This document shows positions 25,748-61,187 of a stretch of DNA of 64,000 nt, in pieces. The position numbers and the translations under genes are program-made. Each line of letters starts with the position of its first letter. Position 1 is the stretch's first letter. Source of the stretch: Candidatus Pacearchaeota archaeon. GTDB lineage: Archaea > Nanobdellota > Nanobdellia > Pacearchaeales > GW2011-AR1. The notes beneath the pieces were generated by a model. It was not told the DNA's origin. It did no database searches and saw only the letters and a program-made list of their open reading frames with translations. The stretch spans positions 22,593 through 86,592 of the forward strand of contig JAFCDZ010000002.1 of the NCBI GenBank assembly GCA_017609405.1. Direction: 5' to 3'.

Positions 25748-27472
25748 ATGAAAGAAGAGCTAATTCAATTTATACAAGAGAATAATCTATCTCCTTTTAA
25801 TGAAAAGAGAGTCTTTTTAGAAGGAAATATAACCTTTTATAGAACAAGAAATGCTAAACAAGTACATAGAAGAGTAATATCTAAGTTATCTGAAGGGTTT
25901 GTTTTTCCAGACACAAGCAATCTATTTGATTTTTTTAAGTTTTCAACTTCTTCAGAAGAAATAAAGAAAAGACAAGATTTTTTTAAGAGAATAAAAGATT
26001 TTGGGGTAATTAATAATAGTTTTTTAAAAGAACTTAAAAAACCTCTTAAAACTTGGACTCCTGAATATAGTATAATTGTTGTAACTGAAAATTATGAGGT
26101 TTTTGAGAAACTAAGACAAAATAATTGTCCTGTCCAGATGATTGTTTCGGAGTCAGATATTTATCCTCTAAAAGATTATGATATTGTTCAGATTTTTGAT
26201 TGCCCAGAGCATCAATTTGCACTTGAGAATCTTCCAAATTCTGTATTAATAAACTCAATTGATGATGCTTATTTAGAAAGATATCTTGAAGAGCTTTCAG
26301 CTTGGAAGCAAAATCTTTTTGAATTAGCAGACAAAAATATTGGAAAAGAAGGAAAAGCTCTTGTTAAAGAATTAAATTCTTTGCTAAGCTTGCTTGAATA
26401 TAATGATTCTATATTAACTAAGGACTTTATTGAAAAAAAGGTGGAGGAAATAAATGAAAAAGTTTCTATGAAACTAAGAGAACTTACAATAAAAGGGGAA
26501 TCTCTTGTTCACATGATTGAGAAAGGGGAGCTTCCTGAGGAGCTCAAGAAAATTACAATGAATGCTATTAATGAAAGCTCTCTTCCAATTAATGTTCTTA
26601 ATATTGGTATTCCTGTAACAATTGATGAAATTGAACTTGATAAACTTATACAACAAGAAAGCTCAAGCAGCTTTATAAGAAAACAGGAGGAAATAAAGAA
26701 TCAAGCAGAAATCATCAAAAAAATACCTGAAAAACTATCAAGATTGTCATCACTTCTTCTCGTCTTTGATTTTATTTCTGGAATATCAAGATATTTAGTA
26801 GACAAGGAAAATTTTCCAGAAATTAAAGATTTCTTTGAAATAAACAATTCAAAAAACATCCTCTTAGAAGACCCTCAGCCAATTTCTTTCAGATTAATTG
26901 ACCACAGATGCTCTGTTTTAACTGGTGCAAATTCAGGGGGTAAAACAACATTATTAGAACATATTATCCAATTGTATTCTTTATTGCAGTTAGGGCTACC
27001 AGTATATGGAGAGTTTAATTCTCCTTTATTTGAGGATATTTATTATTTTGCTAAGAATAAAGGGAGTGCTACAAGAGGGGCTTTTGAAAATCTGTTGTCT
27101 CAACTATCAAGCATAAAACCAGGAAATAAGACTCTCATTCTTGCAGATGAAATCGAGGCTGTTACAGAACCTGGTGCAGCTGGAAAAATTATTTCTGCAA
27201 CTATTGAGTATTATGTGAAAAAGAATTGTTTTTTGATTATAGCAACACATCTTGGGCAAGAAATAAATGAAATGCTTCCTGAAAAAACACGGATTGACGG
27301 CATTGAAGCAAAAGGTCTCGATGACAACTTTGAATTAATTGTGGATCATAATCCAATTGAAAATCATCTTGCAAGCTCAACACCTGAATTAATTATTGAA
27401 AAGATGGCACGAAAAAAATATAATGATTATCTTAATTTTGTCAATTCTTTCATAAAATCAAGAAATATATAG
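25748..27472 (+). CDS. MutS domain V ATPase (archaeal MutS2-like protein)
   Basis: Walker A LTGANSGGKTTLL, Walker B LILADEIEAVTEP and ATHL, preceded by a long helical N-terminal region. Confidence 0.75.
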   Translation: MKEELIQFIQENNLSPFNEKRVFLEGNITFYRTRNAKQVHRRVISKLSEGFVFPDTSNLFDFFKFSTSSEEIKKRQDFFKRIKDFGVINNSFLKELKKPLKTWTPEYSIIVVTENYEVFEKLRQNNCPVQMIVSESDIYPLKDYDIVQIFDCPEHQFALENLPNSVLINSIDDAYLERYLEELSAWKQNLFELADKNIGKEGKALVKELNSLLSLLEYNDSILTKDFIEKKVEEINEKVSMKLRELTIKGESLVHMIEKGELPEELKKITMNAINESSLPINVLNIGIPVTIDEIELDKLIQQESSSSFIRKQEEIKNQAEIIKKIPEKLSRLSSLLLVFDFISGISRYLVDKENFPEIKDFFEINNSKNILLEDPQPISFRLIDHRCSVLTGANSGGKTTLLEHIIQLYSLLQLGLPVYGEFNSPLFEDIYYFAKNKGSATRGAFENLLSQLSSIKPGNKTLILADEIEAVTEPGAAGKIISATIEYYVKKNCFLIIATHLGQEINEMLPEKTRIDGIEAKGLDDNFELIVDHNPIENHLASSTPELIIEKMARKKYNDYLNFVNSFIKSRNI

Positions 27473-27494
27473 ATAAGTGGCTTCTACTAACCCT

Positions 27495-27518
27495 ATAACA
27501 TGGCCTCGACGGGATTTG
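27495..27518 (-). repeat. 24-nt direct duplicate of the tRNA-Lys 3' end (T-loop 3' part, acceptor 3' strand and 6 nt of trailer)
   Basis: ataacatggcctcgacgggatttg is identical to 27708-27731. Confidence 0.9.
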
Positions 27519-27707
27519 GGCCTCACAGAGTTCGACCTGATACGCTTACTCACTTCGTTCGTAATCAAATTAGGCCTCATTCCTGAAAGGCATTCGACCT
27601 GCTTCGCCCAAGCGTGGTGAGCAGGCCTCACCAAAGCACTGAAGCTCGACCTAATTCGTCTACTCCTTTCAGTCGTAGCCAAATTAAACCCAAAGGGTTC
27701 AAATCTG
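27519..27707 (-). other. GC-rich 189-nt insert between tRNA-Lys and its duplicated 3' end
   Basis: Contains three units of the form ggcctca-N(6-20)-tcgacct. The end next to the tRNA holds an 11-nt inverted copy of the tRNA T-arm (gggttcaaatc). The distal ~55 nt is homologous to the insert at the tRNA-Ile locus. Confidence 0.7.
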
Positions 27708-27713
27708 ATAACA

Positions 27714-27787
27714 TGGCCTCGACGGGATTTGAACCCGCGACACCTAGCTTAAAAGGCTAGTGCTCTACCAGGCTGAGCTACGAGGCC
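27714..27787 (-). tRNA. tRNA-Lys (anticodon UUU)
   Basis: Hand-folded cloverleaf: GGCCTCG/TA/GCTC-AGCCTGGTA-GAGC/A/CTAGC-CTTTTAA-GCTAG/GTGTC/GCGGG-TTCAAAT-CCCGT/CGAGGCC/A. 74 nt with no encoded CCA. Confidence 0.92.
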
Positions 27788-27844
27788 TTATACCAGAATT
27801 CTCTAATTCTGGATGATAATAATCGTAAAAATCAATATTTAAAA

Positions 27845-31667: not shown

Positions 31668-31766
31668 ATGGAAACAAATGAAAAATATGAAGAACCAGAA
31701 ATCGCAAAGTTCCCTGTATCAGGAGAAGAAGGGAAAATTGCAGAATTTTGGATTGAATCAGATTAA
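31668..31766 (+). CDS. candidate 32-aa precursor peptide METNEKYEEPEIAKFPVSGEEGKIAEFWIESD
   Basis: Not in the ORF track because it is under 60 aa. It lies directly upstream of the PqqD-like and rSAM/SPASM genes. The codon-position signal favours this frame: 26/32 codons end in A/T and 15/32 start with G, whereas in the overlapping track frame only 14/30 codons end in A/T. Confidence 0.45.
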   Translation: METNEKYEEPEIAKFPVSGEEGKIAEFWIESD

Positions 31767-31992
31767 AAGGCCAAAGAGGTTCTTTTTTAGAAAAGAAGAA
31801 CAGGGTTACATAGTTTTTGATAGCTTGAGTTCTCAGATTTTTTTTACAAATAAGACCGCAAAAGAAATAATATCTTTCTTTGATTCTGGATTAACAAAAA
31901 AAGAGATCATTGACAGTATTTCTAAAAAATATAAAATTTCTTCACAGAAAGCTTCAAAAGGGATAAATAAAATTTTAAGGGAAATAGAATGA
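31753..31992 (+). CDS. PqqD-family peptide-binding protein (RiPP recognition element-like)
   Basis: KRFFFRKEEQGYIVFDSLSSQIFFTNKTAKEIISFFDSGLTKKEIIDSISKKY matches the PqqD beta-strand plus winged-helix pattern. The start is uncertain: TTG 31753 is preferred here, the track start is ATG 31678. The gene overlaps the rSAM gene start by 4 nt. Confidence 0.65.
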   Translation: MNQIKRPKRFFFRKEEQGYIVFDSLSSQIFFTNKTAKEIISFFDSGLTKKEIIDSISKKYKISSQKASKGINKILREIE

Positions 31993-32999
31993 ATACTTTT
32001 TCTGCACCAATTTATATGGGGATTGATCTAACTGAACGATGCAATCTTAGATGCATTCATTGTCGCGTTTCAACATCTACAAAAAAGACTAACGAAATTT
32101 CACTTAAGAAATTAAGAGAATTAATAGATACTTTATCAAAAATGAAGGTTATCCAGATAATCTATTCTGGGGGAGAACCTTTTTTAAGGAAAGATATTTT
32201 TGAAATTTTATCTTACTCTGTAAAAAAAGGAATACCCGATCTAATTGTAGTTACAAATGGTCTATTACTGAATGACGAAAAGATATCTAAATTAAAGAAA
32301 ACGGGTATGAAGAAGATAACAATTAGTTTGGATGGTTTAGAAGAATCGCATGATATAATTAGGGGCAAGGGTACATTTAAAAGAACTTTGGATATAATTA
32401 AGAGGTTGGTAAAAGAAGGATTTGAAGTTAAAGTTACAATGACATTAAATAAACTAAACAAAAATGATGTTCTCCAATTATCTGTTTTATTAAATATGAT
32501 TGGTGTAAAAAGAATTAATGTTGGGAATTTAATGCCTTGTGGAAGAGGGAAAGACTTATGGGATCAATCGTTAGACTTTAAGGAGAAATATGAATTGTTC
32601 AATAAAATAAAAAAAGTTAATAATAAATATGGAGAGAATTTCATAAATTTTGAGTCTTCTTTTTTATCAGAACCGAGACTTTCTAAATCAGAACAAAAAA
32701 TTGCTTCCTTTTTAGGTTGTAGGGGAGGAAGAACTTATTGTGCGATTCTTGCTAATGGAGATGTTGTTGCCTGTAAAATGCTCCCCCATGTTGTTGCTGG
32801 GAATATTTACAAAACGAATTTTTCTAAGATTTGGAAAGATGATAAAAATTGGAAAATTTGGAGAGAGGGTAAATTACCCAAAAAATGCCGTCTTTGCAAA
32901 TATGGGGAGGCTTGTAGAGGGGGCTGTAAAGCTATTAGCTTTTACAAATATGGGAGATTTGATGTTCCAGATCCAAGATGTATCGGGCCCTTCACTTAA
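31989..32999 (+). CDS. radical SAM enzyme with a C-terminal SPASM domain
   Basis: CNLRCIHC (CxxxCxxC), GGEPFL, and a C-terminal auxiliary-cluster pattern GCRGG..C(x12)C ... CRLCKYGEACRGGC ... C. Confidence 0.85.
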   Translation: MNTFSAPIYMGIDLTERCNLRCIHCRVSTSTKKTNEISLKKLRELIDTLSKMKVIQIIYSGGEPFLRKDIFEILSYSVKKGIPDLIVVTNGLLLNDEKISKLKKTGMKKITISLDGLEESHDIIRGKGTFKRTLDIIKRLVKEGFEVKVTMTLNKLNKNDVLQLSVLLNMIGVKRINVGNLMPCGRGKDLWDQSLDFKEKYELFNKIKKVNNKYGENFINFESSFLSEPRLSKSEQKIASFLGCRGGRTYCAILANGDVVACKMLPHVVAGNIYKTNFSKIWKDDKNWKIWREGKLPKKCRLCKYGEACRGGCKAISFYKYGRFDVPDPRCIGPFT

Positions 33000-33855
33000 A
33001 CGGCTTCACAAAATTTTCATTAAAATATAAAGAGTAATACCTATGAAGACCTTGGCATTTTTCTCTCTTTTTACACTCCGAACATTTTTTTGGAAAATAT
33101 CGCCCTTCCAATCCGGTTAATATCTTTCCTTGTTTGATCAACCAAACATCCCAATTTACATTTTCAGCTCTTTTATCATTAATGATGCATAAGGGTATAT
33201 TTTCAAACAAGATTTTTTTATTATTACCAATTTTATTTATTGCTTTTTTTATTTTTCTTAACGAAACCAAATGCTTCTTGGAATAGTTTTTGTGTCCTTT
33301 AATGGGATAAAATCTCGGATAGGAAATTCTAATTTCCTCGATAAAAGGATATTTTTCTTCGAAGAAATTAATTGTTTTATACAGAGATCTATAATTATAT
33401 CTAGTAATCACCGTGTTTGTTGATATTTTAACCTTACTTCTATATTTTCTTAATAATTCCATATTTTTTAACAATTTCTCAAAATTTTTTGATTGTGTTA
33501 TTTTCTCATAAGAATTTTTATCATGCGAGTGAAATGATATTTTTAATTCATTTAACCCTACTTTAATAATCTTTCTAAGTAGTTTTTCATTTAAAAAAAT
33601 TAGGTTAGTCTCAATTAAAGTATACTTTTGATTTGCTTTTGCAAACTTTATAATCTCAGATATATCTTTCCTAAGTAAAACTTCCCCTCCTGAAAGAATC
33701 AATTTTCTGAAAGGTTTAGATAATTTTATGTCTTTTTTGATTTCATTTATGGTTGGATTTGGATGAGGGTGTTTTTTAACAGAACAAAAAACACAATTAT
33801 GGGGGCATTCAGTTGTAACGTGAATTTCTGCTTCTTTATTTATCATTTTCTTCAA
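32992..33855 (-). CDS. radical SAM enzyme (second, non-SPASM type)
   Basis: CPHNCVFC near the N-terminus, SGGEVLL, and a short C-terminal CSECKKREKC motif. 287 aa. Confidence 0.75.
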   Translation of the reverse strand: MKKMINKEAEIHVTTECPHNCVFCSVKKHPHPNPTINEIKKDIKLSKPFRKLILSGGEVLLRKDISEIIKFAKANQKYTLIETNLIFLNEKLLRKIIKVGLNELKISFHSHDKNSYEKITQSKNFEKLLKNMELLRKYRSKVKISTNTVITRYNYRSLYKTINFFEEKYPFIEEIRISYPRFYPIKGHKNYSKKHLVSLRKIKKAINKIGNNKKILFENIPLCIINDKRAENVNWDVWLIKQGKILTGLEGRYFPKKCSECKKREKCQGLHRYYSLYFNENFVKPFK

Positions 33856-40778: not shown

Positions 40779-41212
40779 TTCAACCTCTTTTACTCTAATA
40801 ATAAAATACTATATAAAAAGTTTTGTTTTTATTGGGCTGGCTCTATTGAAAAATTTTGATTTATATAATTAAGTTAGAATTAATAGGCAATACCTTTTGG
40901 GGTTAAACATTTCTTCAAACAATATCTACCAGTGTTTCTGTTGCGTTAGGTTGAACAAAACAAGAAATCTTTGCTGAACACTGCCTCTTGAGAATTATTG
41001 TATTAATCATTTTTATTTACTGAATAAGTTCACATTAATATTTTAGCAATGTTCAACAAGTGCTTTTAGTTTTTAGTTAGTTAAGAAAGCCCTGATAATT
41101 CCTAATTTTTAAGATTTGCGAAGCCTTTATAAATAATTATCTTCTTTTTTAAATAAAAATCATTTTTATTAAGCGAAAAATTTAAAAACCTTTGAACTAT
41201 TATAGAAGTAAA

Positions 41213-43109
<1,897 letters not shown>

Positions 43110-44305: not shown

Positions 44306-44983
44306 ATGGAGAGTTTAAAGGAAAAAAGACGCAGAGCTGAAAAAATTATGAGACTTTTGCTTAAAGAATTTTTGGGATATAGAAAACCAACTGTTAGAAG
44401 AACATCTGAGTCTTCTGGAAGCTCGACTCCTTTCAAAGTTTTGATAAGCTGTCTGCTTTCTTTGAGAGCAAAAGATGAAAATACAGAAAAAGTTTCAAAA
44501 GCTCTTTTTAAAGTTGCAGATACTCCTGAGAAAATAGCAAAACTTCCTCTAAAAAAACTTGAAAAATTAATTTATAGCTCAGGATATTATAGGAATAAAG
44601 CAAGAACAATAAAAGAAGTTTCTAAAACTTTAATTAAGAAGTATAATGGGAAGGTTCCAGATACAAAAGAAGAGCTTTTGTCAATAAAAGGAATTGGACC
44701 AAAAACAGCAAACATTGTTCTTGGGTTTGCTTATGGCAAGGATGTAATTCCTGTTGATACACATGTTCATAGAATACCAAATAGACTTGGATTAGTAAAA
44801 ACTAAAACTCCAGAAGAAACTGAAATTGAATTAATGAAAATTTTTCCAAAAAAATATTGGAAAGAGATTAATACAATTTTTATTTTGTTTGGGAAAAATA
44901 TCTGTCTTCCAGTTTCTCCTTTTTGTAGCAAATGCCCGCTAAATAAATTATGCAAGAGAGTTGGAGTTAGAAAGGCGAGATAA
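44306..44983 (+). CDS. nth: endonuclease III (HhH-GPD DNA glycosylase with a 4Fe-4S cluster)
   Basis: The HhH motif LLSIKGIGPKTANIVL, VDTHVHRI, and the C-terminal CxxxxxxCxxCxxxxxC cluster. Confidence 0.9.
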   Translation: MESLKEKRRRAEKIMRLLLKEFLGYRKPTVRRTSESSGSSTPFKVLISCLLSLRAKDENTEKVSKALFKVADTPEKIAKLPLKKLEKLIYSSGYYRNKARTIKEVSKTLIKKYNGKVPDTKEELLSIKGIGPKTANIVLGFAYGKDVIPVDTHVHRIPNRLGLVKTKTPEETEIELMKIFPKKYWKEINTIFILFGKNICLPVSPFCSKCPLNKLCKRVGVRKAR

Positions 44984-45460
44984 AAATTCCAAAGCTTTTT
45001 TTAATTGGACTTCTCCGATTTTCCCCCATTTGCAATATTTAAGAAACTCTTCTGGAGCAATGAATTTTCTTTCATTAATTATTCCTTCAGCAATGTCTAT
45101 TGTTTGTTCTTTTATATTTTTTATTTTTCCAACTGCTCTTAATAAATAATGTTCTTTTTTGGTGCAGTTTTTAGATAGCGGGGTAACTTTTATTTGTCCT
45201 ATTAGTTTAATTGAATCTTCATATAATTCAATGTCTGCTTCTTCATCTGCTTCGCGAATCAATGCTTGTTTCCAGTCTTCTCCTTTTTCAATTCCTCCCC
45301 CCGGCAATCTCCAGCTTCTTTTTGGATTTACTATGCACAATTTGTTATCTGAAGTAAATAAAAATCCATATATTTGAGTGATGTTTTTTGAGGCAGTTTC
45401 TATTGAATTAATCCATTCTAATTCATATTCTTGGCCCCCCCAATTTGTTTTTTCTTTCAT
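44948..45460 (-). CDS. NUDIX hydrolase
   Basis: Nudix box GGGIEKGEDWKQALIREADEEADI. Confidence 0.85.
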   Translation of the reverse strand: MKEKTNWGGQEYELEWINSIETASKNITQIYGFLFTSDNKLCIVNPKRSWRLPGGGIEKGEDWKQALIREADEEADIELYEDSIKLIGQIKVTPLSKNCTKKEHYLLRAVGKIKNIKEQTIDIAEGIINERKFIAPEEFLKYCKWGKIGEVQLKKALEFLSRLSNSNSLA

Positions 45461-45600
45461 TTGAATTCAACCTCTTTGTAGGAATTCGAATGCTTTTTTC
45501 ATTTGAATTCAACCTCTTTGTAGGAATTCGAATGCTTTTTTCATTTGAATTCAACCTCTTTGTAGGAATTCGAATGCTTTTTTCATTTGAATTTTTTAAT
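45457..45600. repeat. 42-bp tandem repeat, 3 full copies plus a partial fourth; each unit is an imperfect palindrome
   Basis: The unit tcatttgaattcaacctctttgtaggaattcgaatgcttttt starts at 45457, 45499 and 45541, with a partial copy at 45583. The arms catttgaattc and gaattcgaatg are inverted. The first unit overlaps the NUDIX start codon. Confidence 0.95.
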
Positions 45601-47451: not shown

Positions 47452-48261
47452 TTTTATTTTTCCTTTTTGAATATCTTGAATTATTTTTCTTGCAGTTTTA
47501 TCTGTATCAACTTCTCCTTTTTTTCTTAAAAATTTCAATTTTAATCCTATCTCTTCAAGAGTCTCTTCAGGATCTTCTTTTTTTTCAACTCCATAAAATT
47601 TTTCAAGAACCCCGTCATGTTCTTGTATAAATCTTTCTACAAACATCTCTGGGTTTTTCACCTTGTCAACAGTTTTTACAGAGATTTTTATCTGTTTGAG
47701 TAGATTATCAAATCTTTTTTTCATTTCATCTTCTGGAATTATTCCAGGAGAATCCAACAAGACTATTTTTCTCGTCAATCTTATTTTTTGCATACCTTTT
47801 GTTATTCCGGCTTGCTGTCCTGTTTTTGCAGACGACCTTCCAATAAGTGCATTAATAATTGAACTCTTTCCTGTGTTTGGATATCCCACAACACCAACTA
47901 CAATTCTCTCATCTTTCTTTATTTTTTTTGCAATAATTTTAATTAATGTCCTCAATTTTGAAATATTCTTTCTCTCTCTAGCAGAAATCATGACAAAAGG
48001 AGACAATTTTTCAGCTCTTATTTTGCTTAAGGCCTCTTTTTCATTTACTAAATCGCTTTTATTAATAACATAGATTATCTTTTTTTCTTTTATTTTCTCT
48101 TCAATAATAGAATTCCTTGTTTCATTAATAAATCTTGAATCTAAAACATATAGAAGAATATCTGAAAAATTTATTACATCTTCAAGAACATTTAGAAATC
48201 TCTTTTTTTTTGTTTTTGGAGTTCTTTCTAATTTGCGACCCATTTTAAAATTTTCCGCCAA
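47446..48261 (-). CDS. circularly permuted GTPase (YlqF/RbgA-like ribosome biogenesis GTPase)
   Basis: G4 NKSDL comes before G1 GYPNTGKSS and G3 DSPG, which is the permuted order. Confidence 0.8.
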   Translation of the reverse strand: MAENFKMGRKLERTPKTKKKRFLNVLEDVINFSDILLYVLDSRFINETRNSIIEEKIKEKKIIYVINKSDLVNEKEALSKIRAEKLSPFVMISARERKNISKLRTLIKIIAKKIKKDERIVVGVVGYPNTGKSSIINALIGRSSAKTGQQAGITKGMQKIRLTRKIVLLDSPGIIPEDEMKKRFDNLLKQIKISVKTVDKVKNPEMFVERFIQEHDGVLEKFYGVEKKEDPEETLEEIGLKLKFLRKKGEVDTDKTARKIIQDIQKGKIKL

Positions 48262-48634
48262 GCCCCTCTATTTCTTCTTCAAGTTCTTTTATTTTCTCTT
48301 TTAACTCCTTAATTTTTTTTCTGTTTCTTAATTTATCTACAATATCATAAAAAGTGTTATTCTTTGATTCAATAACCTTTATTTTTTCAGGTTCCTTAAC
48401 CTCATTTATTTTCTTTTTTATATGTTTATTCTTCTCTTTCAGAATATCACTTAATTTTTTAACTTTGATTGGTTTTGTTTTTTCAATTTCTTCTTTTTTC
48501 TTTAGATATTTAATAAGAAGCAATATTGCAACTATGCAAATTATTCCAATTAATAATACCCAAAGCCTTATAGATACCTCATAATTCAACAAAGATGATA
48601 AAGTGTATCTTGCTTCTCCAGTTTTATTTATCAT
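48245..48634 (-). CDS. membrane-anchored coiled-coil protein
   Basis: One N-terminal TM helix followed by a K/E-rich helical region. Confidence 0.45.
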   Translation of the reverse strand: MINKTGEARYTLSSLLNYEVSIRLWVLLIGIICIVAILLLIKYLKKKEEIEKTKPIKVKKLSDILKEKNKHIKKKINEVKEPEKIKVIESKNNTFYDIVDKLRNRKKIKELKEKIKELEEEIEGLGGKF

Positions 48635-48668
48635 ATTTCAAAATATTTCTTAAGATATAAAAAACTTA

Positions 48669-49442
48669 CTATATGGATTCTTTAAGTTCGTTGAGATAAT
48701 ACTTTCCAGCGATTGTATCTATTTCTATTGTCTGTTTTTTGTTATTTTTTGAAGATATTTGTTTAAATAAAATTACAATTAAAATAATTAATCCACAAAA
48801 AATAAATGACAATAATAACCATTTTAAAAAACTAACAGAATTTTTAAAAAGTAGGGGGATATTTTTTAGAATTCTTGAAGAGTCTTTTTTTGGATATTCT
48901 TTTTTCTCAGTTAAATCTTGATAAACCTGAAGATTATATTTTTCAGAAGGACTAAAAGATAACACCGAACTATTTGTTCCTTCTAATTTTATAACATAAT
49001 CAGTTTCTTTTGTTGATACTTCTTGACCATTAAAAATAGAAGATATCTTTAAACTATAATTTCCCGGGAGGAATGCATTCTCATTAAAGAAAATTCTATA
49101 ATATTGCTTTTTCCAAAGACCTCCATAACCTGCTTTAAATATTGTTTGATTTCTTTTTTCTAATGCAATTCCGATACAACTCTCAGTTCTTATACCTTCT
49201 TTATCAAAAAAGCAAAGATATTTTTTTTTGTCATAAACAGGACCATTAAAATTAATAATTATTTTTTCAATATTCTCCAATCCCCCCTCCCCTGTTGAAA
49301 ATTTGATAAAAAAATCAACATAAACGAGGTTTTCTTCTTTCCCATAACTTACCTCTGGTGATGGAGAATAATCAATTTTTATAGCAAAAATACTGCTTAT
49401 TAAAAATAATGACATAATAAATAAAGCACACTCTTTTCTCAT
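48669..49442 (-). CDS. secreted/anchored hypothetical protein
   Basis: The ATG at 49442 gives a signal-peptide-like MRKECALFIMSLFLISSIFA. There is a C-terminal TM helix. Confidence 0.5.
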   Translation of the reverse strand: MRKECALFIMSLFLISSIFAIKIDYSPSPEVSYGKEENLVYVDFFIKFSTGEGGLENIEKIIINFNGPVYDKKKYLCFFDKEGIRTESCIGIALEKRNQTIFKAGYGGLWKKQYYRIFFNENAFLPGNYSLKISSIFNGQEVSTKETDYVIKLEGTNSSVLSFSPSEKYNLQVYQDLTEKKEYPKKDSSRILKNIPLLFKNSVSFLKWLLLSFIFCGLIILIVILFKQISSKNNKKQTIEIDTIAGKYYLNELKESI

Positions 49443-49591
49443 ATCAAATATTAGCACACAAGTTTTATAAAGTTTGTTGGTTGATTTATTCAGAATTATA
49501 AATTTGATAATAATGTTAAATACAAAATTTAAGGAAGCACTATTCAGCAAATAAAGGGCTTTTTTTACTCAAGACTTTTCAACAACACGAG

Positions 49592-51829
49592 CTATTCAAC
49601 AATTTTAAACGAGATTCCTGGATTTTCATTTACACCAAAGATATATATCTCTGTGTTATTGTATAAAAGAGTAAAATAATTTTCATTGAAAAATACATCT
49701 CTTAAATCTTCTTTTCTTATTACTATTACTGCCGAATCTATTCTACTTTCTCTTTCAATCCACTCTTTTGAGAATCTTTTTTCACAGATTCCTTTAATCC
49801 CTAAAACACAGGGTCCATAAAATTTTGTATACATTTCATTATTTAGTATATCTTTTATTTTTGAATAAGTTCTGAGAGAGTCCTCTTGTGAGAAAATAGA
49901 TGAAACAAGCCTGTTCATAAACTTCTTTTCTTCACTTTGCCCAACAGGTTTAATATATGGCATTATTTTTAATCCCGATATTGACGCTAATTGATAATAT
50001 GTTAAAATATCAATAGAAGATTTTGCAGGAGATATTATGATTGTATCTTTTGTTAAATGCTTACTCATCCAATTTCCAGCATTATAACAAGAAGGTTCAA
50101 CCGTACTATAATAACCATTTTCATTCTCCCACCACTTCATATAGGAAAAACTTGGAATAATACTAAACATAATGATTGTGGAAAACACCATAATTAAGGT
50201 TATCTTCTTAAAATAATCAAGATAACTTTTCTTTTTTGTAGGAAATAGGTAAAGAACTTCTATTGATTTTCCAATAAATAATGACATAAACACTATTAAA
50301 ATTCCAAAAGACCTATACACCCCAATATCTAATAAAAATAAACTTATTCCAGTTAAAACAATAAGAACCCCCAATAAAGGTCTAATCTCTCTTTTTGAAT
50401 CAATTAGATAATATAACAGACCAAAGAAAAAAAACAACCAGAAAAAAAGATTAATATAAACATTTCCAAAAGAATTATCCAAAACTCTTTTTTTTGTAAA
50501 AATACCAACAAGGTCTTTTATTCTTTCATTAAATGTTTGATAAAGAACAGAGTTAGTATTTGTATGAACTAAAAAATTAGTTATCTTTGCGATATTTAAG
50601 ATACCAAAAAATTGTAAAAATGCTAATAAGAATAATGTCATAAATAAAATAACAAGAAGAATGTCTCCTATTTTTGGAAATCTGTCTTCAAGAAATATAA
50701 AGAATAAATAAACTAAAAGGATAACACTAACTAAAAGACCCATTAAAATATGATTAAAGAATAAAATACTAATAATTAAAATTATAATAAAATAATACTC
50801 TTTCTTGTTTCCTTTTATAAAAAAAGTTGATATAAGAATTAAAAAAACAATAATTGAAACTATCAAATAATGAATCGGGCCAATTGAAAAAAGATTAAAA
50901 ATTTTGTTAGACATTATTCCAAAAAGTAAAAGAATAATTGTGCCAAAAACAGAGAAGGATTTAATAATATCTTCCCTATTTTCTTTTTCACATACTTCTT
51001 TTTTAAAATATCTATTTATCATACCAAATATAAATGGGGTTGAAATAAAGATTATTGATTTTGGAGCAACTAAGAATGGTGAACCAATCTCTCTTGTTGA
51101 AAGGATTATTAAGAAGCAAAAAGAGATAAGAAAAGATATCTCTCTTTTTATTCTAAAGCCATTTAAGAAATAAAAGATGCCTGTTAAAAAAAGAAATGGG
51201 AATAAAAAGTGAGCATAGAACCAGCCAAGGGAGAAAACATCAAGATTATATAAATAAGAATTAAGAGCAATAAAAATTGAAATACTATCAATATAAGCAA
51301 AACTTCTGAAAATCTGTGAATAATTTAAAACATAATTTGCTAAATGGGCGTGGGTGTATAAAAAATCCCAAGTTACCCACAACGGGAATTTATTAAATCT
51401 CAAAACAAATAACGAAACACCAAAGGATAGAATTAACAAAATAAAAAAAGTAATCAAAGAATTTCGCGATACCTCAATGAAATTTTCCTCTTTTTTCAAA
51501 AATTTATAAAAGTAATAAACAAAATAAAATCCAAAAATAATAACTGAAAGATTAAATAAATTAAACAGGTTAATAGAATACAAAGATATAGCAAGACCTA
51601 TTATTAATAAAAATCCGAGAGACCATGAAATAAAAAAATAACCAATAAAATCAATTTTCTTTTTGATTTTTCCGAGGTTCTCCAAAAAAATATTTCCCAT
51701 CAAATAGGGCAAGATAATAAAAAAGGGAATAGCAAAAATTGCTTTTAAAATAATTGAAGATAAGAAAAAACTAATCATAATACTTATCAGAGTATATAAA
51801 AAAAATATTTTCTCTAATTTTATTCTCAT
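49592..51829 (-). CDS. large polytopic membrane protein, GT-C-like (possible divergent oligosaccharyl/glycosyl transferase)
   Basis: At least 13 hydrophobic helices followed by a soluble C-terminal domain that begins KWWENENGYY. The gene lies inside a glycosyltransferase cluster. The family assignment is tentative. Confidence 0.4.
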   Translation of the reverse strand: MRIKLEKIFFLYTLISIMISFFLSSIILKAIFAIPFFIILPYLMGNIFLENLGKIKKKIDFIGYFFISWSLGFLLIIGLAISLYSINLFNLFNLSVIIFGFYFVYYFYKFLKKEENFIEVSRNSLITFFILLILSFGVSLFVLRFNKFPLWVTWDFLYTHAHLANYVLNYSQIFRSFAYIDSISIFIALNSYLYNLDVFSLGWFYAHFLFPFLFLTGIFYFLNGFRIKREISFLISFCFLIILSTREIGSPFLVAPKSIIFISTPFIFGMINRYFKKEVCEKENREDIIKSFSVFGTIILLLFGIMSNKIFNLFSIGPIHYLIVSIIVFLILISTFFIKGNKKEYYFIIILIISILFFNHILMGLLVSVILLVYLFFIFLEDRFPKIGDILLVILFMTLFLLAFLQFFGILNIAKITNFLVHTNTNSVLYQTFNERIKDLVGIFTKKRVLDNSFGNVYINLFFWLFFFFGLLYYLIDSKREIRPLLGVLIVLTGISLFLLDIGVYRSFGILIVFMSLFIGKSIEVLYLFPTKKKSYLDYFKKITLIMVFSTIIMFSIIPSFSYMKWWENENGYYSTVEPSCYNAGNWMSKHLTKDTIIISPAKSSIDILTYYQLASISGLKIMPYIKPVGQSEEKKFMNRLVSSIFSQEDSLRTYSKIKDILNNEMYTKFYGPCVLGIKGICEKRFSKEWIERESRIDSAVIVIRKEDLRDVFFNENYFTLLYNNTEIYIFGVNENPGISFKIVE

Positions 51830-51830
51830 T

Positions 51831-53066
51831 TTATTTCCCCTCTTTTTTGTTATGTAATGATAATTTTTTATAAATCTTTTCAATTTTTTCAATTATCTTT
51901 TTTTCATTAAACTTTTTTACAAAATCCCTATAAGCATTTTTTCCCATTTTTTTTAGAATTTTTTTATTTTTCATGAGCTTATTTAATATCTCCTTTAATT
52001 GTCTTTTATCTCCAACATTAAATAAATATCCATTATAACCCTCTTTTATTAATTCTGGATTCCCTCCAATATTTGTTGCAACTACAGGGATTTCGCTTCT
52101 AAAATTCTCTAAAATTGACATCGAGCAGTTTTCAAAATAAATTGAAGGGACAATTCCAACATCCATTTCTTTTCTAAATTCTTCTAATTTTTCATTTTTT
52201 ATATTTCCGTAAAAAATTATTCTTTTGTCATTTTCAGCAATTTTTTTAAAATAATCTTTTATCTTCTTTCGCCCTTCTCCAAAAAAATGTATTCTTATGT
52301 TATTATCTTTTATTTCTTTGACTGCTCTTATTATGGTTTGTCCACCTTTGTGTAATTGATATCCTCCTGTAAAAATAATATCAAAAGTTTTTTTCTTCTC
52401 ATCACTTTTTTTATTTTTTTTATCCTCTAAAAAATTATATATGACTTCTTTTTTTGAATTTTTGAAAAACCCTTCTTTTTCATAAATATCCTTTATTGCT
52501 TTTGTAGGAAAAATAACCACTTCTGGTTTTGCTATCATCTTGTTTATTTTTGAATATGCTTTTGATATCATCTTGTAAACAAAACTATTCATTAAGGGAT
52601 ATCTTATTCCAGCAATTTCATCTAATTCAGGTAAATTATTCATTGGGAAAATCAGGTTTATGCTATGTATTGTTACAATAATTGGTATATGTGCTCTTTT
52701 CACTGCAGAATAAACAGAGAGAGATAAATAAGGAATTTCATGTATATGGACCACATCTGGTTTTTCTTTTTCTAATATCTTTTTTATTTTAAAATAGGAG
52801 TCCGGATTCCAAAAATTTAAAACAAAGGTTCTTAATCTTCCCATTAAAGAAATCTTATTTCTTCTTAAAAAAGGAATCCATACGCCAAAAGGATAAATGC
52901 GATATATTTTTATTCCTTGGCTATCTTTAAAAAAGCTTTTTCCAGTTGTTATTATTATAACCTCATGCCCCCTTCTTTTTAGAGACTCTGCAAGTATCTT
53001 AGTATATATAGTTGAGCCACCAATTTCATAAGGAGGATATGCAAAATTAATCAGGCAGATTTTCAT
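51831..53066 (-). CDS. GT4-family glycosyltransferase
   Basis: The N-terminal MKICLINFAYPPYEIGGS pattern and a C-terminal GT-B block (PSIYFENCSMSILENFRSEIPVVATNIGGNPELI). Confidence 0.8.
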   Translation of the reverse strand: MKICLINFAYPPYEIGGSTIYTKILAESLKRRGHEVIIITTGKSFFKDSQGIKIYRIYPFGVWIPFLRRNKISLMGRLRTFVLNFWNPDSYFKIKKILEKEKPDVVHIHEIPYLSLSVYSAVKRAHIPIIVTIHSINLIFPMNNLPELDEIAGIRYPLMNSFVYKMISKAYSKINKMIAKPEVVIFPTKAIKDIYEKEGFFKNSKKEVIYNFLEDKKNKKSDEKKKTFDIIFTGGYQLHKGGQTIIRAVKEIKDNNIRIHFFGEGRKKIKDYFKKIAENDKRIIFYGNIKNEKLEEFRKEMDVGIVPSIYFENCSMSILENFRSEIPVVATNIGGNPELIKEGYNGYLFNVGDKRQLKEILNKLMKNKKILKKMGKNAYRDFVKKFNEKKIIEKIEKIYKKLSLHNKKEGK

Positions 53067-53067
53067 T

Positions 53068-53526
53068 TTAAAATATCTCTCCAAAATAAATCCTTCTTTT
53101 TTTATCTAATTTCTCTAATTCATAAAAAAGAGAGAGTATTAAAACAAATAATATAACAAAAAAAAGGATTATCTCAATTGAAAAAGAAATTTTATAAATT
53201 AAGCAAGAAGTTATAATCACTGCTAAAGTAATTATGCTTATAATTAAAACTTTTAATTTTTCTTCTCTTGTTAGGATAATTCTTTTTATATCAAAATAAT
53301 CAAAATCTTCATCAAAATAATCTAATTCTCTTTTTTTAATTTTTCTTTTTTCTAAAAAAAGCGAGAAAATAAATAAACTTAAACTTGTGATAAACAACAA
53401 GACAGGATTAAAATAATTCCTCATTGAAGGGAAAAATAAAGATATAAAAAAAAGAAATATAAAAAAACTAATCAAATATGCTGAGAGGTCTTTTATTAGA
53501 TATTCAATAAATTTTATCTTTTTCAT
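53068..53526 (-). CDS. hypothetical membrane protein
   Basis: Four hydrophobic helices. The ATG at 53526 abuts the upstream stop. Confidence 0.45.
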   Translation of the reverse strand: MKKIKFIEYLIKDLSAYLISFFIFLFFISLFFPSMRNYFNPVLLFITSLSLFIFSLFLEKRKIKKRELDYFDEDFDYFDIKRIILTREEKLKVLIISIITLAVIITSCLIYKISFSIEIILFFVILFVLILSLFYELEKLDKKRRIYFGEIF

Positions 53527-53527
53527 T

Positions 53528-54931
53528 TTAAAAAGATATCTTCGATGGCCCCTTATTATCATATATTCTTAGAATATCATACTTAAAGAATTCTTCAATC
53601 TTACCTATATTTCCAATAAGTTTTAAATTCTTTTCAGAACTATTTATCTGTTTGACAAATTTGATCTCTTTTATTATCTTGCATTTATTATTTTCACACT
53701 CTTCTATCTTTTTATATTGATCTTTTTTTACACTATCTACTTTTGTTTTATTATCTTCATAGATAAAAATAATGTATTTATAATTTTCAAAAAATTTAAT
53801 TCCACAAGCAATAGGTTTTATTGTTTTTGATTCATCCTGTTTATGATAAAAAGGGAATATCTCTATGAATCTTTTATTTTTATAGACTTTTACAGAAACC
53901 CCTGCTTTAATAGATAAATCATCTTTATTTGTCCAAGAAACAATCATTTCATAACCTTTATTTTTGTTATCTTCTGTTAGTTCTGAGATTATTATGTCTT
54001 TTCTTGCATTCTTATAATCTAACCAACTTTCGTTATGTTCCTTTTTAGTATCTTCAGACAATACTCTTTTCCATTTACCATCAATATTAAAAATCAATTC
54101 CCACGGAGAAATATAAAAAATTTCTCTGTTTTCATTGAATATATGTATTCCATCAGTATTTTTTCTTGATGTTGCTATCTCAAAAAAATAATCTTCATCA
54201 TCTTTTTTTTCATCTATCTTTATGAAGATTTTTTTTGTTTTGTTGTATAATCCATAAACTCTTGTTAGATAAATTAATGAATTTGAATCTGTATATATTT
54301 TATTAAAGGAGCCAAAGATATCTGCAGAGTAGTTATCTGATTCTAATGAGATATAATCTCTTGTGTTTTGAGGTATTTTTATCCTATCTAAATTTATAAA
54401 TCCTTTTCTATCATTCAAGTTTATTATTCTTCCATTTTGAAGAACTAATTTATCAAATTTCTCTGGCCAGTTCTTTTTGTTTACCAAACCTAAGCTATGC
54501 TCTTCTATTTTTTCTGGTCTTGAAAAATTTCCATCAATTTCATAGGTTATTAAACTTCCTTCTAATGAATAAACTTCTCTTACAAATGAGGGGTCTTTTG
54601 TTTTATTTGAGTATTCAATTATTAATTTATTCATTTCAACATTTATTTTTTTGTTATCTTCACCACTAAACCAAGATTTTTTTCCAGAAGGGCTATAAAT
54701 TAATTTTTCCACCCCATTGTATTTTAACAAGGATTGCCATGGGCTTATTACAAACAATTTTTGATTATTAACATAGACATTAATGTATGGCTCCTTAGTA
54801 ATTTTATCAACTTCAATAACCATATCTCTATTTTTTATAACATAAGGAGTATTCCTTGGACTGAGAGCAAATAAAATAACTAAAATCAGAAACAATACAA
54901 AACTCACCTCTCTTATTTTATTTTTATTCAT
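53528..54931 (-). CDS. hypothetical secreted/anchored protein
   Basis: 467 aa with an N-terminal hydrophobic anchor. No family recognised. Confidence 0.5.
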   Translation of the reverse strand: MNKNKIREVSFVLFLILVILFALSPRNTPYVIKNRDMVIEVDKITKEPYINVYVNNQKLFVISPWQSLLKYNGVEKLIYSPSGKKSWFSGEDNKKINVEMNKLIIEYSNKTKDPSFVREVYSLEGSLITYEIDGNFSRPEKIEEHSLGLVNKKNWPEKFDKLVLQNGRIINLNDRKGFINLDRIKIPQNTRDYISLESDNYSADIFGSFNKIYTDSNSLIYLTRVYGLYNKTKKIFIKIDEKKDDEDYFFEIATSRKNTDGIHIFNENREIFYISPWELIFNIDGKWKRVLSEDTKKEHNESWLDYKNARKDIIISELTEDNKNKGYEMIVSWTNKDDLSIKAGVSVKVYKNKRFIEIFPFYHKQDESKTIKPIACGIKFFENYKYIIFIYEDNKTKVDSVKKDQYKKIEECENNKCKIIKEIKFVKQINSSEKNLKLIGNIGKIEEFFKYDILRIYDNKGPSKISF

Positions 54932-55228
54932 ATCTTAATAAGTTTCTTCTTGTTTTTAAGTTTAACTTTTAGCTAAGTTCTATTGAAAATTTTCGTGTTA
55001 ATTGTATAAATATTCTAAGGTAGGCTCAGTACTTAGAGTTATCCCAATAATCTTTATGACTACAGTGTTCAGTGGGCATAGTTTGGATAACAATTTTAAG
55101 AGAATTTTTTATAGTGTTTCTTATTCTGTTCAACCTAACACTAAAACATCTATAAACCAAACCAGAAATGTTGAATTTATCTTTTTAGGCCTAATTAAAT
55201 ATTTAAATAACTTAATTTTTTTTAAGTA

Positions 55229-56047
55229 ATGGAAGAATGTAAAACAATTGTTATACTTGGATATGGAAGATCTGGAACATCTCTTGTTGCAGGAATCTTG
55301 AATAGTCTTGGAATAAATATGGGTGAAAGATTATATGAAAAAGATTCTTTTAATCCTTTGGGTTATTTTGAAGATGTTGATTTTATGTGGTTGAATAACG
55401 AGATTCTTGAAAGAGTATTACAAAAGAATTCAATTTACGATGGATTTAATAATCTTCCACCAAAAAGGGAAGAAATCTTGAAACAGAATAAAAAATTCTC
55501 TAAAAAAATAAGGAAACTAATAAAAAAGAAGAACAAATCAAAAGTCTGGGGATGGAAGCATCCTCTAACAGCTTTAACAATAGACCTTTTTTTACCTTAT
55601 TTAAGGAATCCCTATTTTATTGTTTGTAAAAGGAGAAAGACAGATATCATAAAATCTGTTCTTAAAATTAAAAAAAACAATATAAACCACATATCAAAAG
55701 TAATAGATGCTTATAATGAAAGGATAAATAATTTTTTTACAAGGCATAAACACCTTAAAAAATTAGAGGTAAAATATGAGAATCTTATCAAAACACCTCA
55801 AAAAGAAATTAGAAAAATAATTGATTTTCTTGAAATTTCTCCAACAAAAGAAGAGTTTGAAAAAGCAGTTAGGATGGTCTTACCTAAGAAAAGAATTAAA
55901 AGATTCTCAAATAAACTAAAAAATGATAAAAAAATAAAATTAAAGAGGTTAATTTATTATTTCAGATGGTGTGTTAATTATCCTAATAAATTTTTAAGAA
56001 TTCCAAGAGTGCTTTATAGAAGAATATTTAATATTTCCAATACTTAA
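55229..56047 (+). CDS. sulfotransferase-family protein
   Basis: The N-terminal VILGYGRSGTSLVAGIL resembles the PAPS 5'-phosphosulfate-binding loop of bacterial sulfotransferases. Size and basic composition are consistent with that family. Confidence 0.5.
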   Translation: MEECKTIVILGYGRSGTSLVAGILNSLGINMGERLYEKDSFNPLGYFEDVDFMWLNNEILERVLQKNSIYDGFNNLPPKREEILKQNKKFSKKIRKLIKKKNKSKVWGWKHPLTALTIDLFLPYLRNPYFIVCKRRKTDIIKSVLKIKKNNINHISKVIDAYNERINNFFTRHKHLKKLEVKYENLIKTPQKEIRKIIDFLEISPTKEEFEKAVRMVLPKKRIKRFSNKLKNDKKIKLKRLIYYFRWCVNYPNKFLRIPRVLYRRIFNISNT

Positions 56048-60426: not shown

Positions 60427-60846
60427 TTATTTTTCCCCCCATGCAACAATACCTAATACAATTAGATAAAAAATTACCCCAATTAATCCAACATAAGGGA
60501 ACCAACTTATTAACTGAGCTAATGCCCACCATCCAGGATAGTTTAAAGATTCAAAAACTTTCCAATTAGCAATAATTAAGAGGACCTGTAAAGGAATCCA
60601 ACCTAATAAAGGTATTAAAATTAAAAATACCCATGCCCAATGAAATCCCCCTAATTGTAATAATAAGCTAATATTTGCTACAGGTATCCAAGCTAACCAG
60701 GGATATGGATGGTTCTTTTTCTTTGCAATTTTCATCCATGCAAGTGAGGAATAAACATATAAACCTATTGCAATTGTTGCAGCAATTATCCCAAATAAAA
60801 TAATCATTGGTCCTGCTATATTTTCATTAATCATTTGTTGAAACAT
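60427..60846 (-). CDS. hypothetical membrane protein
   Basis: 139 aa with four hydrophobic helices and many Trp residues. Confidence 0.5.
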   Translation of the reverse strand: MFQQMINENIAGPMIILFGIIAATIAIGLYVYSSLAWMKIAKKKNHPYPWLAWIPVANISLLLQLGGFHWAWVFLILIPLLGWIPLQVLLIIANWKVFESLNYPGWWALAQLISWFPYVGLIGVIFYLIVLGIVAWGEK

Positions 60847-60931
60847 TTTATTTCACCTCCTTTCACTTTTTTACAAGGCAGTTTTTTCAAATCCCTGCTG
60901 GATTAATAATCCTATGGGACCTGCCTTAGGT

Positions 60932-60953
60932 TAAATGAGCCTGCGCGGATTTG
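60932..60953 (-). repeat. 22-nt direct duplicate of the tRNA-Ile 3' end
   Basis: taaatgagcctgcgcggatttg is identical to 61036-61057. Confidence 0.9.
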
Positions 60954-61035
60954 GGCCTCACAGTTACTCTGTTGCTCGACCTGATACGCTTGCTCGTTAC
61001 ACTCGCAATCATATCAAACCGCGAGCGGTTCAAAG
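60954..61035 (-). other. 82-nt GC-rich insert between tRNA-Ile and its duplicated 3' end
   Basis: Starts with ggcctcacag...tcgacctgatacgctt, which it shares with the Lys-locus insert. Ends with ccgcgagcggttcaaag, an inverted copy of the tRNA-Ile T-arm. Confidence 0.7.
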
Positions 61036-61039
61036 TAAA

Positions 61040-61114
61040 TGAGCCTGCGCGGATTTGAACCGCGGACCCCTACCTTATCAGAGTAGTGCTCTAACCTGGC
61101 TGAGCTACAGGCTC
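61040..61114 (-). tRNA. tRNA-Ile (anticodon GAU)
   Basis: Hand-folded: GAGCCTG/TA/GCTC-AGCCAGGTTA-GAGC/A/CTACT-CTGATAA-GGTAG/GGGTC/CGCGG-TTCAAAT-CCGCG/CAGGCTC/A. 75 nt. Confidence 0.9.
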
Positions 61115-61161
61115 ATGGTTTTAGTAGCCAGACGGGTTTTAGCGGAATCTTTGATTCCAGC

Positions 61162-61187
61162 CTAACCTGGCTGAGCTACAGGCTCAT
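61162..61187 (-). repeat. 26-nt direct duplicate of the tRNA-Ile 5' end (2 nt of leader plus positions 1 to about 22)
   Basis: ctaacctggctgagctacaggctcat is identical to 61091-61116. The two copies are separated by a 45-nt spacer (61117-61161). Confidence 0.9.

Follow-up and report, generated by a model that had tools for sequence, protein, structure and literature searches.

Two tRNA genes of an archaeal genome, tRNA-Lys(UUU) and tRNA-Ile(GAU), are each followed by a short GC-rich insert and a perfect second copy of their own 3' end. In both cases homologous hairpin modules lie exactly between U55 and C56 of this spare copy. We interpret the two loci, with a probability of about one half, as DNA-level scars at a hotspot of integration or rearrangement in the T-loop, holding a tiny non-coding hairpin element that would probably be co-transcribed with the tRNA. 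The anatomy, the second locus, the covariation of the hairpin, the lack of a bulge-helix-bulge motif and the recurrence in other genomes are observed; the mobility of the module, the enzyme involved, the order of events and the transcription are what we infer from these arrangements.

Host genome and related loci

The window, i.e. the whole 64-kb stretch of DNA that was analysed, has a GC content of 29.5% and carries an archaeal gene set (RNA polymerase subunit B, aIF5B, S10, S24e, S27ae, RpoE, Spt4 and SerRS). A MutS2-like protein encoded next to the tRNA-Lys locus is at most 57% identical to any other among 5.8 billion proteins, and its relatives are labelled Pacearchaeota, Woesearchaeota or Nanoarchaeota. 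Because of this low identity, the labels of the relatives and the archaeal gene set, the host is, on sequence grounds, a DPANN archaeon without a close sequenced relative, and comparative tests are therefore limited. A total of 79 loci were fetched by using MutS2 synteny to seek orthologous tRNA-Lys loci, and the tRNA is not syntenic in them. One additional look-up yielded a region free of tRNAs, and exact look-ups with four proteins of the window had no counterpart on record. No pair of empty and occupied sites was found in a close relative, the nearest MutS2 being 57% identical and the synteny lost. One related genome (L041) possesses a non-syntenic tRNA-Lys(UUU) whose T-arm is the same; it lacks an insert, and a T5 terminator follows it at once.

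Organization of the tRNA-Lys locus

The features of the tRNA-Lys locus, in tRNA-sense order, are as follows.

27793..27812, minus strand: leader hairpin of 8 perfect bp, ccagaatt-agag-aattctgg, 5 nt upstream of the tRNA (read directly)
27714..27787, minus strand: intact tRNA-Lys(UUU), CCA not encoded (ARAGORN; Rfam tRNA, 73.5 bits)
27708..27731, minus strand: proximal 24-nt repeat copy, C56 to A73 plus the trailer tgttat (repeat comparison)
27695..27705, minus strand: "anti-T" gatttgaaccc, an 11-nt inverted copy of the gene's own T-stem 5' strand and T-loop, forming the 5' arm of hairpin H0
27687..27691, minus strand: gggtt, direct copy of T-stem/T-loop positions 51-55, parallel to cgcggtt at tRNA-Ile
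27624..27686, minus strand: module U1, P1 hairpin plus GGTCGA...TGAGGCC (cmsearch, 84.7 bits; alignment and pair counts)
27573..27623, minus strand: module U2, divergent, with shortened P1 (motif match and alignment; 8.9 bits with model R1)
27519..27572, minus strand: module U3, directly abutting C56 of the distal copy (cmsearch, 69.1 bits)
27495..27518, minus strand: distal 24-nt repeat copy, separated by 22 nt from the stop codon of the convergent MutS2-like gene

Exactly two occurrences of the 24-mer CAAATCCCGTCGAGGCCATGTTAT exist, at 27708-27731 and 27495-27518, and no match appeared in any of 100 shuffles, even with three mismatches allowed. An intact tRNA-Lys with a 189-nt insert and a perfect 24-nt copy of its 3' end, as described in the earlier note, is thereby confirmed by ARAGORN, Rfam and the shuffles. 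The sequence between the copies (27519-27707, 189 nt) has 49% GC against 29.5% in the window, in agreement with the GC enrichment noticed before, and is composite, consisting of the H0 piece and then the three head-to-tail modules U1, U2 and U3. The anti-T at 27695-27705, already seen as an 11-nt inverted T-arm copy beside the tRNA, is 100% complementary to positions 27726-27736 of the tRNA, and a match of this length was found in none of 200 shuffles. The gggtt piece (27687..27691) serves twice, as 3' arm of H0 and as the 5' portion of the Lys pseudo T-arm. The leader hairpin that had been reported 5 nt upstream of the gene is present as well. The earlier description of the insert was thus correct as far as it went; it missed the longer pseudo T-arm, the placement at U55/C56, the palindromic junction and the tRNA-Ile locus. 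The convergent MutS2-like gene occupies 25748-27472. A 74-aa ORF spans the insert (27458-27682), gives no family match and is not conserved at the Ile locus.

A second locus at tRNA-Ile

A scan for GC islands led to tRNA-Ile(GAU), 33 kb from tRNA-Lys, which displays the same architecture. Its features are given in the same order.

61162..61187, minus strand: outer 26-nt copy of the tRNA-Ile 5' end
61117..61161, minus strand: 45-nt insert between the two 5' copies, with the hairpin ggaatc-aaa-gattcc inside, 47% GC
61040..61114, minus strand: intact tRNA-Ile(GAU) (ARAGORN and Rfam)
61036..61057, minus strand: proximal 22-nt repeat, C56 to A73 plus ttta (100% identity)
61025..61034, minus strand: anti-T tttgaaccgc, an inverted copy of the T-arm of this tRNA (repeat comparison and shuffles)
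61017..61023, minus strand: cgcggtt, which repeats the 5' strand of the T-stem and U54 U55 in direct orientation
60954..61016, minus strand: module U4 (63 nt), between U55 and C56 of the pseudo T-arm (cmsearch, 85.9 bits)
60932..60953, minus strand: distal 22-nt repeat of the tRNA-Ile 3' end (22/22 identical)
60877..60931, minus strand: GC-richer hairpin region before the ribosome-binding site of ORF 60427-60846

This gene is duplicated at both ends. The 26-nt copy of the 5' end is perfect and comprises a 2-nt leader, the acceptor 5' strand, and D-stem plus D-loop up to G22; it lies at a spacing of 71 nt upstream and encloses the 45-nt insert. Downstream of the distal 3' repeat, a degenerate inverted copy of the T-loop and 3' end is found at 60886-60917.

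Architecture common to both loci

After the tRNA and its trailer, both loci continue in the same order, with an inverted copy of the gene's T-arm, a piece of the T-stem in direct orientation, the module or modules, and the rest of the 3' end. The spare copy corresponds to tRNA positions from about 49/51 to 73 plus trailer (6 nt at Lys, 4 nt at Ile), and a palindromic junction with an axis of 0-3 nt links it to the gene. H0 has the inverted T-arm as its 5' arm; its 3' arm is formed by the T-stem 5' strand, copied directly, together with U54 and U55. These flanks are specific to the tRNA, each matching its own gene, and the module is homologous between the loci. The inserts between the 3' repeats are 82-189 nt long, non-coding, and have 49-51% GC.

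The three duplicated tRNA pieces are identical in 72 of 72 nt, against a divergence of 16-27% among the modules. It follows that the modules diverged before their arrival or that the copies are young. Accordingly, the contrast admits either of two accounts, a recent insertion that was small from the beginning, or copies that are kept identical by selection or conversion.

Structure of the hairpin module

The module has a length of 51-63 nt and is present in three tandem copies at Lys and one at Ile. An alignment of the four copies displays two helices. P1 is an imperfect hairpin of 12 bp with an 11-nt loop that opens and closes with GA, and five of its pairs show changes on both sides (compensatory). 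P2, with GA and UGA on its flanks, is a closing helix of 4 bp, GGUC/GGCC; its GGTC/GGCC pairing is found in 4/4 copies, and its loop varies from 6 to 15 nt. The invariant halves GGUCGA and UGAGGCC take the form stem-GA...UGA-stem, which is also visible in the P1 loop. Each helix contains one invariant U.G, and a purine-purine mismatch is also conserved. Standard pairs occupy 96% of the cells, compared with 22-45% when the partners are slid; with only four sequences these statistics are modest, and the observed values were reached by 6 of 500 shuffles. Wobble pairs occur solely on the tRNA-sense strand, and the constrained molecule would therefore be RNA or single-stranded DNA of that strand. 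Folding z-scores range from -1.9 to -2.8.

At its edges, each module is preceded by GGTT or GGCC (GGYY in 4/4, a small sample) and ends in GGCC, with no flanking duplication. The hairpin at the right end is variable among the modules and absent in U3, and the left one, P1, is strongly supported. The three units of the form ggcctca-N-tcgacct pointed out previously at tRNA-Lys are real, and AGGTCGA-N-TGAGGCC has a fourth occurrence at 60954-60982, with a chance expectation of 0. U3 and U4 were supposed to be clearly more similar to each other than to U1; the values of 83% vs 80% did not confirm this.

A covariance model, R1, was built from U1, U3 and U4. A scan of the window with R1 recovered U1, U3, U4 and, weakly, U2, and nothing else, so that no dispersed copies of the module were found in the window beyond the two tRNA loci. 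R1 also gave no match in 540 kb across 66 related archaeal loci. In Rfam 15 only the tRNAs were matched, and nothing over either insert even at E<=10. The module core had 16 matches in metagenomes, all attributable to chance and located in high-GC coding DNA. Scans of viral sequences with the core, the junction and the Lys T-arm plus anti-T gave random matches or none, and blastn comparison of the insert with phage and plasmid sequences yielded nothing. The module core is thus missing from the metagenome, viral, phage and plasmid collections at the sensitivity that these searches had. The 64-kb window contains 62 non-overlapping ORFs of at least 90 aa, and none of them was recognised as an integrase, Y1 transposase, Cas1 or reverse transcriptase.

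Several known classes of element were considered by eye and dropped. A box C/D sRNA lacks the canonical boxes, and its would-be guides pair with each other. The segment AAGCGUAU resembles the 5' strand of group II domain V (D5) in the wrong structural context. The repeats of a CRISPR-like array would not vary internally as these do, and a retroelement primer-binding site would be on the wrong strand and in the wrong register. H/ACA RNA, hammerhead and other small ribozymes, RNase P and SRP RNA were dropped likewise.

Transcription and the tRNA precursor

Oligo-T has an established role in archaeal termination. The window's tRNA-Asp and the relative's tRNA-Lys have oligo-T directly after the gene, the first run of at least four T being at +1 at tRNA-Asp; the first such run is at +257 at Lys and +240 at Ile, beyond the distal copies. 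Because there is no oligo-T before the distal copy, transcription probably extends through the entire insert, which would then form a long tRNA trailer that normal 3' processing removes. In the minimum-free-energy fold of the full Lys precursor, the module ends UGAGGCC pair with the acceptor 5' strand. Since the module ends can pair in this manner, the long Lys trailer might interfere with folding of the tRNA, or be selected not to.

Recurrence in other genomes

The sample for comparison consisted of 23 tRNAs from the window and from the archaeal MAG loci fetched through MutS2. Exact or near-exact partial tRNA copies flank six of them. An inverted copy of the tRNA's own T-arm was found +5 to +16 nt past the 3' end at Lys and Ile of the window, at tRNA-Ser of L006, at tRNA-Gln of L064 and in L044, whose tRNA has a canonical intron; in L030 it is perhaps present. 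None of seven control tRNAs from unrelated loci is followed by an inverted T-arm. Both 5' and 3' duplications are found in L006 and a 5' duplication in L011, and the three 5' inserts (window Ile, L006 and L011) are all 42-45 nt long. The inserts in the spare T-arms of the relatives are unrelated to the window module, and in L006 the insert is AT-rich.

When viral contigs were scanned with a generic pattern, two bacterial prophage ends came up, situated beside tail-fibre and lysin genes. Both display a 3' copy, an inverted T-arm of 14-22 nt and then a second copy, and at one of them (L232) a GC hairpin of 20 nt interrupts the T-loop of the second copy. Since the architecture recurs in archaea and at prophage ends, it is not specific to this host and occurs where integrating elements are active.

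A proposed two-layer scar at the T-loop

tRNA genes are the main landing sites of mobile DNA, and partial tRNA copies delimit islands and prophages. The scar that we favour would have two layers. In the first, the 3' part of the gene, which begins at the T-stem and reaches 4-6 nt beyond the end, would have been duplicated downstream of the intact tRNA. Either recombinases with their crossover in the T-loop, or repair at the T-arm hairpin (of a break or by template switching), would have left this duplication. The palindromic junction may have arisen when synthesis snapped back or switched template at a T-arm hairpin that was broken or stalled. The tRNA stays functional because the proximal copy completes the gene. 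In the second layer, a module of 51-63 nt would have been inserted at U55/C56 of the redundant copy. The module would be a small non-autonomous mobile element, specific to the T-loop and mobilised in trans, with its strand-specific hairpins as cis-acting sites.

The scar is supported by exact repeats that run from C56 through the 3' end and trailer at two different tRNAs, and by homologous modules that occupy the same U55/C56 site in both tRNA contexts, at a distance of 33 kb. An insertion that is new and was tiny from the start suits the contrast of 72/72 identity with 16-27% divergence better than slow decay. The partial copies at 6/23 tRNAs and the same type of scar at two prophage ends point in the same direction. 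There is evidence against it as well. The window holds no recombinase, and the module is seen nowhere else, so that multi-copy mobility rests on two loci. The overlap sequence that a tyrosine recombinase is expected to leave on both sides of the module is absent, and double-stranded recombination would have to excise a circle of 104-213 bp, a very small size for it. The perfect distal copies and the covariation could equally reflect selection on RNA.

Among the readings put forward in the earlier note, the footprint or miniature derivative of an element integrating into tRNA 3' ends fits best, considering the start of the repeat in the T-loop, the D-loop duplication at Ile and the prophage ends. 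It falls short in the lack of a recombinase, the tiny insert and the repeated structured core at two tRNAs, which decay of a large element leaves unexplained. Simple decay does not fit, as it fails to predict the tiny size, the palindromic junction and a covarying module common to two tRNAs.

Alternative explanations

A functional structured RNA, co-transcribed with the tRNA and with its modules freed from the long trailer, is a rather improbable explanation of the insert. The RNase Z site would then set the 5' end, processing or folding would be signalled by the distal tRNA-like 3' end and the anti-T hairpin, and the modules might possibly be protein-binding, K-loop-like GA.GA motifs; a mobile origin would be compatible with such a role. 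The GC enrichment over the window (49-51% vs 29.5%), the covariation of P1, the wobbles restricted to the tRNA sense, the negative folding z-scores (-1.9 to -2.8) and the absence of a terminator before the distal copy are all in its favour, as are the distal copies that are 100% identical despite diverged modules and the invariant GGUCGA/UGAGGCC halves. However, there is no Rfam match at E<=10, the corresponding inserts of the relatives are unrelated and AT-rich, the copy number is 3 at one locus vs 1 at the other, and the P2 loop has 6-15 nt. The ends of single-strand DNA transposons are just as typically made of strand-specific hairpins with conserved mismatches. The co-transcribed structured RNA suggested earlier has some support from the covariation, the tRNA-sense G.U pairs and the lack of early oligo-T.

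It is likewise a speculative and rather improbable view that the module represents an undescribed T-loop-specific mobile unit of DPANN archaea, acting at the DNA or the RNA level, and that the architecture is a general signature without a name so far. Such a unit may move as single-stranded DNA by means of an HUH-type enzyme nicking the T-loop of an extruded T-arm hairpin, or it may be an RNA-level module riding on tRNA transcripts. The inverted T-arm and the duplicated 3' end would then be the signature of the event at archaeal and bacterial tRNA/tmRNA genes.

We regard as unlikely an origin without any mobile element, through template switching or break repair at the T-arm hairpin, giving a direct-inverted-direct micro-rearrangement with templated filler, followed by spread of the module between the two pseudo T-loops by ectopic gene conversion. 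The succession of copy, inverted T-arm and copy with an axis of 0-3 nt is the pattern of snap-back or template-switch synthesis, it is found in unrelated genomes with unrelated filler, and a recombinase is absent nearby. On the other hand, Lys and Ile have only 11 nt of flank in common (GGTTCAAATCC), less than ordinary conversion needs, and the modules are 16-27% diverged next to duplicated tRNA pieces that are identical. Moreover, covariation implies selection on the module, the junction falls exactly at U55/C56 at both loci, and the scars are associated with sites used by prophages.

The long non-canonical T-loop intron proposed in the earlier note, with U55 joined to the distal C56, is very improbable. 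Splicing at any equivalent point of the repeats would lead to the same mature tRNA, and canonical introns exist in DPANN relatives, as in the tRNA of L044. However, the tRNA is contiguous, canonical and complete without splicing. Bulge-helix-bulge motifs, the archaeal splice signal, which the earlier note proposed to look for at the repeat boundaries, do not join the two copies at either locus: an exhaustive scan for hBHBh' (the motif with flanking helices) at Ile gave no candidate with the 104-nt (3') or 71-nt (5') spacing, the scan at Lys gave only a 2+2-bp chance motif in the trailer, and in manual tests the module boundaries cannot form a bulge-helix-bulge. An assembly artefact, i.e. a chimeric join at a short repeat, is the least probable of all, in spite of the metagenome-derived contig and of a related contig (L044) that stops inside its own distal copy, because the 22-24-nt repeats are shorter than typical assembly k-mers, two independent loci of the window have a common architecture with a diverged module, and comparable structures are present in SPAdes and MEGAHIT assemblies.

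Relation to known systems

Partial tRNA copies that flank integrated elements are established att remnants (10.1101/2020.12.28.424599). Integrase subfamilies have defined sublocations: for the T-loop sublocation, attB extends from the T-loop to the tRNA 3' end; for the D-loop sublocation, integration is upstream and the repeat consists of the acceptor 5' strand, D-stem and D-loop (10.1101/2020.11.02.365908). Both duplications at Ile and that at Lys fit these sublocations. Like the att repeats of tyrosine integrases in islands, prophages and tycheposons, the scars have a direct repeat from the T-loop to the 3' end with the gene regenerated on one side; the acceptor/D-loop duplication at the Ile 5' end and the recurrence at several tRNAs and prophage ends are further likenesses. 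Unlike att-flanked elements, they enclose only 82-189 nt with no integrase or cargo, have an inverted T-arm at the junction, and carry at two tRNAs a structured module without overlap duplication. CIMEs and site-specific accretion resemble them in the att-type flanking repeats, the lack of recombination genes and the tandem accumulation at one tRNA. Known CIMEs are kilobases long, whereas the unit here is about 60 nt and its tandem copies are not separated by att copies.

The guide and cleavage tetranucleotides of IS200/IS605 elements were compared by the rules of IS608 (PMC3201880). With IS200/IS605 elements, PATEs and REP/BIME sequences the module shares the absence of terminal inverted repeats and of target duplication. 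As in the IS200/IS605 relatives, the hairpins are strand-specific and imperfect with conserved mismatches, the insertion is 3' of a fixed tetranucleotide (GGYY, 4/4), the terminal GGCC is complementary to an internal GGTC, and the copies form head-to-tail intergenic clusters. The differences lie in a right-end hairpin that is not conserved, the lack of a left guide, a geometry that departs from IS608, the absence of a Y1 transposase from the window and the confinement of the copies to pseudo T-loops. As neither a right-end hairpin nor a left guide, a transposase or dispersed copies could be found, the module was not filed under IS200/IS605.

The archaeal non-canonical introns and split tRNAs of Thermoproteales and Nanoarchaeum also have GC-rich extra sequence, a T-loop position and duplicated tRNA pieces, but here there is no bulge-helix-bulge, the gene is complete, and no complementary leader/trailer pair exists. 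Template-switch rearrangements at quasi-palindromes likewise give two direct copies and a short inverted copy, centred here on the T-arm, yet they leave unexplained a common covarying module at the identical position of two loci.

Implications

Scars at tRNA genes may thus be reduced to about 100-200 nt while keeping a fixed anatomy, consisting of a 3' duplicate, an inverted T-arm and a T-loop insertion in the spare copy. This anatomy recurs in distant genomes and hence would be searchable as a footprint of recombinase activity. Annotators should be warned that such structures are not to be called introns or split tRNAs. If the module is mobile, it would rank with the smallest known site-specific elements, and none would have been described before it in these ultra-small archaea; if it acts as RNA, it would be a new tRNA-linked non-coding RNA.

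Sequences flanking tRNA-Ile

The intact tRNA-Ile(GAU) gene of the window is accompanied by repeats and hairpins on both of its sides:

61091-61187, minus strand: perfect 26-nt duplication of the tRNA-Ile 5' end, 71 nt upstream
60932-60953, minus strand: distal 22-nt copy of the tRNA-Ile 3' end
60877-60931, minus strand: GC-richer nested hairpin, aaggcag...ctgcctt
60427-60846: DUF5684-like membrane ORF

The 5' duplicate spans the leader, the acceptor strand and both D-stem and D-loop. The 45-nt insert separating the two 5' copies holds a hairpin, ggaatc-aaa-gattcc, which is near-identical to the hairpin core gcaatc-aaa-gattgc of the tRNA-Gln 3' insert in the archaeal MAG locus L064. The nested hairpin downstream contains a degenerate inverted copy of the T-loop/3' end and is bordered by the distal tRNA-Ile copy on one side and the ribosome-binding site of the membrane ORF on the other. 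With this placement, tRNA-Ile and the membrane ORF may share a transcript.

Related arrangements on other contigs

The arrangement seen at the window tRNAs was also found at the tail/lysin end of two bacterial prophage contigs (L232 8277-8416 and L228 13632-13737), where a 3' copy that is tRNA/tmRNA-like comes first, then an inverted T-arm and then another copy, which in L232 is split in the T-loop by a 20-nt GC hairpin. One contig of a Pacearchaeota MAG (L044 1-90, minus strand) stops exactly within the distal pseudo-3' copy that lies downstream of a tRNA with an intron. Repeats of this kind may interrupt assembly; alternatively, the sequence past this point may hold a larger element.

Other gene groups in the window

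Four further features were observed:

31678-33855: PqqD-like small protein, then two radical-SAM ORFs on opposite strands
41192-43109, plus strand: Cpn10 ORF directly upstream of a Cpn60_TCP1-family ORF
45470-45595, minus strand: 42-nt unit in three tandem copies
48000-58000: 24-26% GC, with many glycosyltransferases and ORFs without family match

The first layout is that of a putative peptide-modification (RiPP-like) cluster. The chaperonin ORFs resemble a GroES/GroEL pair of bacterial type, set among genes that are otherwise archaeal, but the Cpn60_TCP1 Pfam match on its own fits an archaeal thermosome subunit as well as GroEL. The low-GC stretch may be a variable cell-surface island. In each 42-nt unit, AGAGGTTGA, which resembles a ribosome-binding site, is accompanied by a mini-ORF of 11 codons (MKKAFEFLQRG*). 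The copies sit immediately upstream of the ORF for a NUDIX hydrolase (44948-45460) and could represent a leader peptide that was triplicated or a gene start that was duplicated.
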